Shown here: positions 5,659-59,724 of the stretch, one piece after another | Layout: each line of letters opens with the position of its first letter | Position numbering within the stretch: position 1 is the stretch's first letter | Assembly (NCBI RefSeq): GCF_003334315.1 | Contig: NZ_QOWR01000013.1 | DNA: 64,000 bases | Reading direction: 5' to 3' (one strand) | Source of the DNA: Escherichia coli | Lineage (GTDB): Bacteria > Pseudomonadota > Gammaproteobacteria > Enterobacterales > Enterobacteriaceae | The notes under the pieces: generated by a model | The model's input: the letters and a program-made list of their open reading frames with translations, nothing else | Databases searched by the model: none | What the model was told of the DNA's origin: nothing | Program-made: the position numbers and the translations under genes

Positions 5659-6092
5659 TGTTGCACTCCTGAAAATTCGCGTTAGCCACGCTCACTCTGG
5701 ACTGCGACATCGCCAGGAAATCAGAGGTGACGTAGGGTGTTTTTTGCCGTTTTTATAGGTCGTTCGCCGAATACGGCGCGTGTTTATATCTGGCAATAGC
5801 AGTATAAAAAGCGCGCCATAGCGGCTCACCGTGCAACAACACAACATTAATGCGTTCAATGAGGCCCGATTTTGGCATTAGCCCTGGACGGTGGAATCCA
5901 CTTCACGGAAATGAAAACAAGAACAAGAAAGGAAGGGTTAAAACGAAGAAATAAAGAAGAGTATGAAATGGATCGCTTGACTCCAGGCAAACGCCAGTAA
6001 AAATCCGCGCTATGAAGCAGTTTTTACTGGCATTTGCCTGAAAAGATTCGATTCAGCACCGCTAAAACGACATTTACCGCTCGCTGAACATA

Positions 6093-7671: not shown

Positions 7672-7716
7672 AAAGCAACCTCAATAAGAAAAACTGCCGC
7701 GAAGGATAGCAGGAAT

Positions 7717-8082
7717 AAAAAAAGGGAGCACTGTATTCACAGCGCTCCCGGTTCGTTTCGCAGCATTCCAGCTACTTTTGTTGCTCCCTGCTCATCCTTG
7801 ACAACTTTTCCTCTGGCCTTGCGGCCAATCGTTCATCCTGAACTATTGCTTCCTGCTCACACCACCCCGATGTGATACTTCATCCTGAAGTGTCCCTGGC
7901 CTTCCTGACCCACCGAATCATCCTGACCGGTTCTCATTCTCCATCCTGGAGGTGTCCTTTAACGCGTCCTGCGTCATCCTCTTCGCTTCATCCAGAAGCC
8001 TTTCCCTGAAACACCATCCTGGTGTGTCCTGCAGAAGTGTCATCATCCTGATGTTCACTTCGTTGTCTGACTCCCTGTCGAC
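7717..8082 (-). ncRNA. csrB: CsrB small RNA (CsrA-sequestering decoy RNA)
   Basis: Minus-strand transcript begins GTCGACAGGGAGTCAGACAACGAAGTGAAC (plus strand 8053-8082); at least 9 CATCC motifs on the plus strand (AGGAUG / CAGGAUG on the RNA) plus many AGGA variants; ends with GC-rich hairpin 7724-7749 and U-run 7717-7723. Confidence 0.93.
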
Positions 8083-15422: not shown

Positions 15423-16571
15423 TTACCAGGCGGTATGGTAAAGCTCTACAATATCCTCAAGCGTTGCTTCACGCGGGTTGCCACCGGTACAAACATCATC
15501 CAGTGCCGCCTGCGCCAGTGCCGGAATGTCTTCCTTGCGTACACCAACATCACGCAAATGTGGCGGAATACCGACATCACGGTTGAGAGCAAACACCGCT
15601 TCAACAGCGGCATTACGCGCCTCTTCCAGGCTCATACCTTCCACTTTCACGCCCATAACGCGCGCGATATCGCGGTACTTCTCACCGGTAAAGTCAGCGT
15701 TATAACGCATGACATGCGGTAACAGGATGGCGTTCGCAACACCGTGTGGAGTGTTATAAAACGCGCCCAGTGGATGCGCCATACCATGCACCAACCCTAA
15801 CCCAACATTCGAGAAGCCCATACCCGCAACATACTGCCCGAGCGCCATTTCTTCTCCGGCATCCTTATCACCAGCAACCGATCCTCGCAGCGCCCCAGCA
15901 ATGATTTCAATCGCTTTAATGTGCAGTGCATCGGTTAGCGCCCACGCGCCACGGGTAATATACCCCTCAATAGCATGAGTGAGCGCATCGACACCCGTCG
16001 CAGCTTTCAGCGCTGGAGGCATACCATCCATCATGTCAGCGTCAATAAACGCCACCTGCGGGATATCATGCGGATCAACGCAAACAAACTTGCGCCGTTT
16101 CTCTTCGTCAGTGATCACGTAGTTAATGGTCACTTCTGCCGCAGTACCTGCTGTGGTAGGAATTGCCAGAATCGGTACACTGGGTTTATTGGTCGGGGAA
16201 AGCCCTTCCAGGCTACGCACATCGGCAAACTCCGGGTTGTTGCTGATAATGCCAATCGCTTTACAAGTATCCTGTGGAGAACCACCACCAATAGCGATCA
16301 GGTAATCCGCGCCGCTATTCTGGAATACACCGAGCCCTTCTTTGACGACAGTAATTGTTGGGTTGGGCACTACGCCGTCGTAAATCGCCCATGCCAGCCC
16401 TGCAGCATCCATCTTATCGGTCACTTTCGCCACCACGCCGCATTGCACCAGCGTTTTATCGGTGACGATCAGCGCCTTCTGATAACCACGGCGTTTCACC
16501 TCATCGGTTAAAGCCCCAACAGCACCCCGACCAAACCATGCCGTTTCGTTCAGAATCATTCTGTTAGCCAT
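15423..16571 (-). CDS. fucO: L-1,2-propanediol oxidoreductase (lactaldehyde reductase), iron-containing alcohol dehydrogenase, 382 aa
   Basis: ORF 15423..16574 (MMANRMILNETAWFGRGAVGAL); second Met chosen; Fe-ADH family motifs. Confidence 0.93.
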   Translation of the reverse strand: MANRMILNETAWFGRGAVGALTDEVKRRGYQKALIVTDKTLVQCGVVAKVTDKMDAAGLAWAIYDGVVPNPTITVVKEGLGVFQNSGADYLIAIGGGSPQDTCKAIGIISNNPEFADVRSLEGLSPTNKPSVPILAIPTTAGTAAEVTINYVITDEEKRRKFVCVDPHDIPQVAFIDADMMDGMPPALKAATGVDALTHAIEGYITRGAWALTDALHIKAIEIIAGALRGSVAGDKDAGEEMALGQYVAGMGFSNVGLGLVHGMAHPLGAFYNTPHGVANAILLPHVMRYNADFTGEKYRDIARVMGVKVEGMSLEEARNAAVEAVFALNRDVGIPPHLRDVGVRKEDIPALAQAALDDVCTGGNPREATLEDIVELYHTAW

Positions 16572-25207: not shown

Positions 25208-26125
25208 TTATTGTTCATAACGAAAGCGGAATTTTTCTTGTTCAGCAGCGGCTTTCGCCAGGATCCATTGGCGAAAGGCGGCTATTTTACCCAGTTCTGC
25301 CTGGCTGTCATGACAAACCAGATAAAAAGCGTTTTTACTGACCAGAACATCATTAAACGGGCAAACAAGACGTCCGGCCTCGATTTCAGATTGCGCCATC
25401 ACGTTATTTGCCAGCGCCACTCCCTGCCCGTGAATAGCCGCTTGCAGCACCATGGCGCTATGACTAAAAATTGGCCCTTGCTGAACGTTGATATGATTTA
25501 ACCCCAACTGTCGGGTATATGTCTGCCAGTCACGGCGTGACGCATCATGTAATAACGTATGTTTAGCCAGATCTTCCGGGGTCTTCAAGGGTTTTTCGCC
25601 TGTCAGCAGTAGCGGCGAACACACCGGCAATAAATATTCGGCGTACAGTTTTTCCACCCGTAGCCCCGGCCAGTTGCCCCGACCATAAAATATCGCCACA
25701 TCAACATCATCCGCCAGCTTATCTTCCTGACGGTCAACCGCCTGGATTCGAACGTCAATTCCCGGATAAGCTGAATTAAAGCTGGAAAGTCGCGGAACCA
25801 ACCAATGAATGGCGAAACTGGGGAGTAAACTGACCGTCAACGCCCCCTTGGCGCTACGGGCCTGGAGTTTACGCGTCGCTTCGGTTAATTGCGAAAATAT
25901 CTCTTTGATATCGAGGAAATAGCTTTGACCTTCCTCGGTCAGCAGGAGTGAACGATTACGGCGGCGGAACAGTTTTAGCCCCAGAAAATCCTCAAGAGAC
26001 TTGATTTGATGACTTACTGCGGCCTGGGTCACAAAAAGCTCTTCTGCTGCGCGAGTGAAACTTAAATGGCGTGCTGCGGCATCAAAAACTCGTAAGGCAT
26101 TTAGCGGTGGTAATCGTTTAGACAT
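25208..26125 (-). CDS. gcvA: LysR-type regulator of the glycine cleavage system GcvA, 305 aa
   Basis: LysR HTH N-terminus (MSKRLPPLNALRVFDAAARHLSFTRAAEELFVTQAAVSHQIK). Confidence 0.95.
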   Translation of the reverse strand: MSKRLPPLNALRVFDAAARHLSFTRAAEELFVTQAAVSHQIKSLEDFLGLKLFRRRNRSLLLTEEGQSYFLDIKEIFSQLTEATRKLQARSAKGALTVSLLPSFAIHWLVPRLSSFNSAYPGIDVRIQAVDRQEDKLADDVDVAIFYGRGNWPGLRVEKLYAEYLLPVCSPLLLTGEKPLKTPEDLAKHTLLHDASRRDWQTYTRQLGLNHINVQQGPIFSHSAMVLQAAIHGQGVALANNVMAQSEIEAGRLVCPFNDVLVSKNAFYLVCHDSQAELGKIAAFRQWILAKAAAEQEKFRFRYEQ

Positions 26126-26253
26126 GGCTTTTAAACTTTGATGTTAAATGAATTTAACAATTAGATCACACTATGTAACCTATTAGTTTTTTTAATCTGA
26201 GCCATTATAAATTGTCCGTTGAGCTTCTACCAGCAAATACCTATAGTGGCGGC

Positions 26254-26459
26254 ACTTCCTGAGCCGGAACGAAAAGTTTTATCGGAATGCGTGTTCTGGT
26301 GAACTTTTGGCTTACGGTTGTGATGTTGTGTTGTTGTGTTTGCAATTGGTCTGCGATTCAGACCATGGTAGCAAAGCTACCTTTTTTCACTTCCTGTACA
26401 TTTACCCTGTCTGTCCATAGTGATTAATGTAGCACCGCCTAATTGCGGTGCTTTTTTTT
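26254..26459 (+). ncRNA. gcvB: GcvB small RNA (Hfq-dependent regulator of amino-acid and peptide transporters)
   Basis: Starts ACTTCCTGAGCCGGAACG 7 nt after TATAGT; GU-rich tract GTTGTGATGTTGTGTTGTTGTGTTTG; ends with hairpin GCACCGCCTAATTGCGGTGC plus T8; divergent from gcvA. Confidence 0.92.
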
Positions 26460-26475
26460 ACCTTGCGATCGTGAA

Positions 26476-26703
26476 TTACTGATCCAGTTCGACCATCTCT
26501 TTCACGTCAGTACGGTTGATCTGCTGTTTGTTGCCATTAGCGTCTTTATACGAAATCATACCGGTATCGTTATCAGTCTGTGGTTTGCCGTCAGAGACGA
26601 TGGTACGTCCGTCATTGGTGTGCATCACATAGTTCGAACCGGAACAGGCGCTCAGGGCAAAAGTCAGCATACAGGCAGAAATAATTGCGGCAGTCTTTTT
26701 CAT
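26476..26703 (-). CDS. ygdI: DUF903 small lipoprotein, 75 aa
   Basis: Signal peptide with lipobox (LSAC); paralog of ygdR in this window. Confidence 0.85.
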
Positions 26704-26894
26704 CATCTTCTCCTTAAAGCGATTAATAAATCTTAATAGTATTGATTAACAGGCTAAAATTAACGCCTAACACTATTCAGCATATGTTACTTACGCGGCT
26801 TCGCCAGGATATCCAGATAATTCTGATGGTTAGCACTCTCCTTGTATCAAAGTGAATTTTGCGTCACGATCGGTGCATCAAGCCGAGGAGTACC

Positions 26895-29420: not shown

Positions 29421-29608
29421 GGCGAGGTTATCCCTCACCCTAAACGCATAAATGCCTGATGCGCTACGCTTATCAGGCCTACATAACTCCTGCAATATTT
29501 TGGATTTGCATGATTTGTAGGCCGGATAAGGCGTTCACGCCGCATCCGGCATGAACAACGCGCACTTAGTCAATAATCAGGATGTGAGGTTACCCCTCAC
29601 CCTGTCAT
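29421..29608. repeat. REP/BIME-type palindromic units flanked by an 18-bp direct repeat
   Basis: REP units at about 29453-29481 and 29518-29551; GAGGTTATCCCTCACCCT (29424-29441) and GAGGTTACCCCTCACCCT (29586-29603) flank them, 17/18 identical. Confidence 0.7.
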
Positions 29609-30944: not shown

Positions 30945-31021
<77 letters not shown>

Positions 31022-59440: not shown

Positions 59441-59528
59441 AAAAAAAACCTGCGCATCCGCGCAGGTTGGTGCAAGAGACAGGGTACGAAGAGCGTACCG
59501 AATAATCTCACCAATCAATACCTCTGGG
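59441..59528 (-). ncRNA. omrA: OmrA small RNA (OmpR-regulated, Hfq-dependent)
   Basis: Minus strand reads CCCAGAGGTATTGATTGGTGAGATTATTCGGTACGCTCTTCGTACCCTGTCTCTTGCACCAACCTGCGCGGATGCGCAGG plus T8. Confidence 0.92.
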
Positions 59529-59642: not shown

Positions 59643-59724
59643 AAAAAAAACCTGCGCATCTGCGCAGGCTGGTGTAATTCATGTGCTCAACCCGAAGTTG
59701 ACTTCACCTATCAATACCTCTGGG
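59643..59724 (-). ncRNA. omrB: OmrB small RNA (paralog of OmrA)
   Basis: Minus strand reads CCCAGAGGTATTGATAGGTGAAGTCAACTTCGGGTTGAGCACATGAATTACACCAGCCTGCGCAGATGCGCAGG plus T8; shares 5' seed and 3' terminator with OmrA. Confidence 0.92.

Follow-up and report, generated by a model that had tools for sequence, protein, structure and literature searches.

The question raised by this locus is what the plus-strand unit at positions 26254-26459 of the window (the whole stretch of 64,000 nucleotides analyzed here) encodes, and whether it is the gcvB small RNA that a preliminary description, made from the letters, had proposed. A covariance-model scan of the whole window against Rfam 15 at the gathering threshold placed the GcvB family, RF00022, at 26254-26459 (+) exactly, with 199 bits against a gathering score of 42 (E = 1.1e-46), and the match spans model positions 1-204 of 204 and is untruncated. 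The RNA is also identical at 206 of 206 positions to gcvB (b4443) of Escherichia coli K-12 MG1655, which is annotated there as a 206-nt ncRNA, "small regulatory RNA GcvB," and lies between gcvA (b2808) and ygdI (b2809), both on the opposite strand. The 206-nt unit of the preliminary description therefore equals the Rfam match and the K-12 gene to the base, and its reading as the gcvB sRNA is borne out by both, showing that this sRNA was recognizable from the raw sequence. We consider it practically certain that the unit at 26254-26459 (+) is gcvB and specifies a small regulatory RNA of E. coli that acts in trans and depends on Hfq. The identity, anatomy, synteny, and conservation of gcvB are computed here, and nothing that contradicts the GcvB explanation was found in these analyses.

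Alignment of positions 26100-26480 (381 bases) with the corresponding K-12 MG1655 stretch revealed only two differences, both in the flanks: at 26130, 5 nt upstream of the gcvA start codon, the window has T and K-12 has A, and at 26472, between the gcvB terminator and the ygdI stop codon, the window has T and K-12 has C. These differences show that the source of the window is an E. coli strain other than K-12. A GcvB match was found in all 5426 of 5426 complete E. coli genomes, at least 99% identical in 5390 of them, with a median of one copy per genome. The gene described here is a canonical, fully characterized E. coli gene that was already known and holds no new biology, and its presence confirms that the window is ordinary E. 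coli chromosome, matching about 2.92-2.98 Mb of K-12.

A few of the 5426 genomes depart from this pattern. The best match is just 80-90% identical in two of them, in three others no match spans 80% of the query or more, at least one genome has two gcvB places, and one place is on a record labelled plasmid. The idea of a plasmid-borne gcvB was considered and rejected: nine "plasmid" records matched, yet those listed are 0.57-5.4 Mb long, and we take the "plasmid" records with gcvB to be chromosomes or chromosome-sized replicons filed as plasmids, with no mobility implied.

The genes on either side are those expected from K-12. Upstream, on the minus strand at 25208-26125 and at the position of K-12 b2808, lies the 305-aa LysR-type transcriptional regulator gene gcvA, whose product matches NCBIfam NF008352, "transcriptional regulator GcvA," with 512.8 bits (cut-off 288) over residues 1-304. 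It is divergent from gcvB, as the preliminary description had stated and as published (PMC1557403), and lies 128 bp upstream of the gcvB +1. Of the matches listed, 105 loci had 400 nt or more of upstream DNA, and gcvA was divergent in every one of these 105, starting 78-289 bp (median, 129) from the gcvB +1. Downstream, at 26476-26706 (-), the DUF903 lipoprotein gene ygdI (K-12 b2809; NF033216, YgdI/YgdR lipoprotein, 113.2 bits versus a cut-off of 42) converges on gcvB and forms the downstream boundary, outside the sRNA unit.

A sigma-70 promoter for gcvB was found by consensus scan at 26219-26247 (+), with 9 of 12 matches to the consensus. Its -35 hexamer TTGAGC (26219-26224) is separated by a 17-nt spacer from the -10 hexamer TATAGT (26242-26247), and the six bases GGCGGC separate the -10 from 26254, which is the seventh base past it, exactly where the preliminary description had put the start. 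Both hexamers are conserved across Enterobacterales in the upstream sequences of loci among the matches listed. The promoter belongs to a conserved gcvB control region at 26182-26253 (+), from -72 to -1, in which most columns are at least 95% conserved in 102 distinct upstream sequences among the matches listed; beyond -72, the same 102 listed sequences are poorly conserved. The dyad ATTAGTTTTTTTAAT at 26182-26196 opens the conserved block, is centred near -65, and has the form ATTA-N7-TAAT, a T-N11-A box. T-N11-A is the typical form of sites for LysR-type regulators, and because of this usual LysR-box layout we assign the dyad to GcvA as a putative recognition site. Putative GcvA sites for gcvB activation have been placed within -90 to +1 (PMC1557403).

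The RNA itself folds more stably than shuffled sequence: the 206-nt RNA has a minimum free energy of -62.1 kcal/mol, whereas shuffles give -47.1 ± 4.1 (z = -3.63), and of 200 shuffles not one folds as stably. Five structural elements are common to the Rfam consensus and the single-sequence fold, with the regions R1 and R2 lying between helices. Stem-loop 1 (SL1; RNA nt 9-59, 26262-26312 [+]), seen in the Rfam structure and in the MFE and centroid folds, has a conserved base and a variable apical part. Stem-loop 2 (SL2; nt 94-112, 26347-26365 [+]), from the Rfam structure and the MFE fold, has a stem that changes on both sides together, as judged by eye in alignment A2, a sequence-only MAFFT alignment of 32 diverse homologues (GTCTGG/CCAGAC, GTCCGG/CCGGAC, and GTCTAG/CTAGAC). 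Stem-loop 3 (SL3; nt 114-128) is followed by six U residues and forms the internal terminator t1 at 26367-26387 (+), and stem-loop 4 (SL4; nt 145-177, 26398-26430 [+]), from the Rfam structure, precedes the terminator t2 (nt 178-199 plus the U tail, 26431-26459 [+]). In the segment from R1 to R2, exactly two hairpins were found in 120 of 120 sequences folded, namely, the window and 119 R1-anchored loci among the matches listed, with 91 of these segments distinct in sequence.

RNAalifold, run on alignment A2, recovered the base of SL1 (its basal 9 pairs), SL3, SL4, and the terminator in the 32 species and missed SL2 and apical SL1. For t2, 7 pairs were recovered, with one compensatory change from G-C to A-U. 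Compensatory change was seen at 4 pairs only in the whole RNA, with a covariation term of -0.32 kcal/mol, and as independent support for the structure this is weak because the aligned species are close relatives and their alignment takes no account of structure; the structure therefore rests mainly on the Rfam model score and the per-sequence folds.

Both terminators were found by terminator scan. In the hairpin of t2 (26431-26452), a stem of 8 bp, 6 of them G-C, closes a 6-nt loop, and the T run extends to 26459; this is the strong terminator with which the unit had been said to end, and it may also serve as a putative 3' Hfq-binding module. The terminator-like hairpin at 26367-26381, with 6 pairs followed by TTTTTT, went unmentioned in the preliminary description and agrees with the published t1 site that gives the short form of ~130 nt (PMC1557403); from the coordinates, termination at t1 gives a short form of ~134 nt, 26254-26387. 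According to the same study, t1 and t2 produce RNAs of ~130 nt and 206 nt, neither of which is translated, about 90% of E. coli gcvB transcripts are reported to stop at t1, and repression of oppA and dppA requires the 206-nt form (PMC1557403).

Three conserved seed regions have been described in GcvB, of which the G/U-rich R1 pairs with most targets (PMC9299463). In the window, R1 (RNA nt 64-89) is the 26-nt tract GTTGTGATGTTGTGTTGTTGTGTTTG, an exact and unique match that occurs only once, at 26317-26342 (+). It lies between SL1 and SL2, where the Rfam consensus leaves it free of pairs and the centroid fold leaves most of it so. The GU-rich tract of the preliminary description is this one, and the role given to it there, that of the target-pairing region, agrees with the published R1 seed (PMC9299463). 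R2 (RNA nt 135-150, 26388-26403 [+]), defined from Rfam conserved positions, is the conserved single-stranded block CACUUCCUGUACAUUU, which is invariant among the matches listed, a circular result, since part of the block was the search seed. In the literature, R2 is highly conserved and may serve cycA only (PMC9299463). The R3 seed region, at about nt 154-171 within SL4 (26407-26424 [+]), takes its positions (nt 154-158, 156, 160, 162, and 159-171) from PMC9299463; there, R3 in SL4 regulates phoP, lrp, and others, and the SroC sponge binds to it (PMC9299463). The stretch holding R2 and R3 (26388-26430) is identical to K-12 and consists of highly conserved positions in the Rfam consensus.

How far these parts are conserved beyond E. 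coli was followed with the seed pattern CACTTCCTGT-N8-20-CTGTCNATAGTG, an exact R2/SL4 match searched in one genome per species. The pattern comes from the 3' half only, and the test of GU-tract conservation is therefore not circular. The scan gave at least 120 loci, essentially all from Enterobacterales, and the genera listed include Citrobacter, Enterobacter, Klebsiella, Salmonella, Serratia, Yersinia, Photorhabdus, Xenorhabdus, Proteus, Providencia, Morganella, Edwardsiella, Hafnia, and Plesiomonas; the cross-species set is confined to Enterobacterales and excludes the more distant GcvB of Vibrio and Pasteurella. Among the matches listed, all but one of the 120 loci (119) have TTGTGTTTG upstream of the seed, and 117 have GTTGTGATG; the GU tract is thus conserved in these Enterobacterales loci. 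The covariance-model search and the alignment to enterobacterial gcvB, the two checks suggested in the preliminary description, both came out in its favor. R1 comes in two main arrangements among these listed matches: the E. coli type GGTTGTGATGTTGTGTTGTTGTGTTTG in 70 loci and a shorter one, TTTGTGGTTGTGATGTTGTGTTTG, in 38, while in 9 further loci it falls short of the latter by one or two bases. Among the matches listed, the columns have a mean identity to the window of 0.89 for R1, 0.79 for SL1, and 0.76 for SL2, and identity falls to 0.37 in the 30 nt past the terminator, marking the 3' boundary of the unit. Two homologues stand out by their length: L099:5575-5805 is unusually long at 231 nt, and L030:4621-4831 has 211 nt, of which 13 are an insertion repeating some of the apical SL1 sequence (TTGTTACAGTA...). 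The length of the SL1 tip is evidently free to vary.

Several other readings of the locus have to be weighed against GcvB. The unit might encode a small protein, so that the RNA would be an mRNA or have a dual function, and a mechanical list of open reading frames does place a 46-aa ATG ORF (46 codons, 26287-26427 [+]) and a 37-aa TTG ORF inside gcvB. However, the ATG of the former sits in the variable apical loop of SL1 and is missing in alignment A2 from sequences of the Yersinia, Photorhabdus, Serratia, and Proteus type, the 7-nt indel between the R1 arrangements and indels of 1-4 nt in SL2 and SL3 would shift the frame, and homologues differ widely in their longest ATG ORF, which measures 0 to 60 aa (median, 30). 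We thus hold the small protein to be highly improbable. Still harder to credit is control of a downstream gene in cis, by a leader or attenuator instead of a trans-acting RNA, even though two successive terminator hairpins on one transcript superficially resemble an attenuator. This reading is excluded, short of an extremely small probability, because ygdI, the next gene, is on the opposite strand and converges on the terminator, leaving no same-strand gene for read-through control; moreover, the GcvB family and its trans targets are established.

It could also be argued that the GU-rich tract is functionless, a simple-sequence run that came about by chance in the spacer between genes, since it is of low complexity, (GTT/GTG)n-like, and such runs can arise by slippage, and since R1 exists in two length arrangements among species. 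Against this, no match to GTTGTGATGTTGTGTTGTTGTGTTTG with up to 3 mismatches was found in 100 dinucleotide-preserving shuffles, among the matches listed, 119 of the 120 loci, from many genera of Enterobacterales, preserve the core TTGTGTTTG although the adjacent stem-loop tips vary, and deletion of R1 abolishes or relieves the repression of many targets (PMC9299463). The probability that we would leave to a chance run is vanishingly small, and the tract is best read as the R1 seed of GcvB.

How GcvB would act in this strain can be outlined from published work on E. coli K-12, whose gcvB is identical in sequence, and from which the regulation by glycine, GcvA, and GcvR, the Hfq dependence, the targets, and the seed regions are taken and to which they should correspond here. 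In K-12, GcvA activates the 206-nt gcvB sRNA at high glycine, GcvA and GcvR repress it at limiting glycine, and Hfq is needed for regulation of the known GcvB targets (PMC3658693), of which there are more than 50 direct mRNA targets, repressed with Hfq via R1 or R3 (PMC9299463). Transcription of gcvB in the window would start at 26254 from the sigma-70 promoter in the gcvA-gcvB intergenic region and end either at the internal t1 (~134-nt form) or at t2 (206-nt form). Abundant glycine would lead to its activation by GcvA, the LysR-type product of the divergent gene, and limiting glycine to its repression by GcvA with GcvR. The RNA would form five stem-loops, with R1 (nt 64-89) and R2 (nt 135-150) remaining single-stranded and stem-loop 4 exposing R3. 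Assisted by Hfq, R1, or R3 for other targets, would then form imperfect duplexes with mRNAs for amino acid and peptide transporters and amino acid biosynthetic enzymes, for example, dppA, oppA, cycA, sstT, and gdhA. These duplexes would lie at the ribosome-binding site or just upstream of it and would block translation. The SroC RNA would in turn sponge GcvB via R3.

The t1 short form (26254-26387) contains SL1, R1, SL2, and SL3 and is without R2 and R3, hence without the SroC sponge site. It is conceivable, if unlikely, that this form is a regulator of its own that escapes SroC and not a mere by-product of termination. Such an independent role, if true, would concern GcvB generally, as the RNA of the window is that of K-12; the finding on the short form is not specific to this locus because nothing in the window RNA differs from K-12.

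In the window itself, neither a scan of R1 RNA duplexes against -70 to +30 of 73 long ORFs nor a scan for the C/A motif yielded a plausible GcvB target site. The best R1 duplex, with -27 kcal/mol near 15975, belongs to a spurious ORF antisense to fucO, and the genes next to a C/A-rich site at 5836-5847 (+), gudP on one side and yqcA on the other, both run on the minus strand; both candidates were rejected. Of the window genes, six were looked up in the GcvB regulon paper (sdaC, argA, lysA, thyA, csdA, and ygdI), and none of them is mentioned there.

The window contains other RNA genes in addition to gcvB. CsrB RNA is present at full length at 7714-8073 (-) (RF00018, 380.4 bits, model positions 1-356 of 356), with many GGA hairpin loops, and a short match to the ES036 (CssrF) sRNA at 29475-29517 (-) (RF02751, 46.5 bits against a gathering score of 37.6, barely above it) falls between tcdA and mltA, as judged by offset from K-12. 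A single initiator-type tRNA-Met (CAU) gene is found in the window at 30945-31021 (+), at a place between mltA and amiC where K-12 MG1655 carries three tandem tRNA copies, metZ, metW, and metV; this difference from K-12 MG1655 is one of copy number in a tandem tRNA array. Two tandem sRNAs of the OmrA/OmrB family lie at 59441-59528 (-) and 59643-59724 (-) (RF00079, 96.6 and 86.1 bits).

OmrA and OmrB resemble GcvB in general design, being short, Hfq-dependent RNAs directed at multiple targets that have an unpaired seed and end in a Rho-independent terminator with a U tail, but family, seed, regulator, and regulon are different, and the sequences are unrelated. Much closer are the GcvB RNAs of Yersinia, Photorhabdus, Serratia, Proteus, and genera related to them, which share with the window the 5' end, the base of SL1, the R1 core GTTGTGATGTTGTGTTTG, R2, SL4 with R3, the terminator, and the divergent gcvA, and which differ in the sequence of apical SL1, SL2, and SL3. 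In alignment A2, their R1 is shorter, (T)TTGTGGTTGTGATGTTGTGTTTG, whereas the E. coli type is GGTTGTGATGTTGTGTTGTTGTGTTTG, a difference of 7 nt. Y. pestis gcvB has likewise been reported to have t1 and t2 and to give RNAs of ~130 nt and 206 nt (PMC1557403). Closest of all is gcvB of K-12 MG1655, in which the RNA, the flanking gene order, the promoter, and both terminators are the same as in the window.
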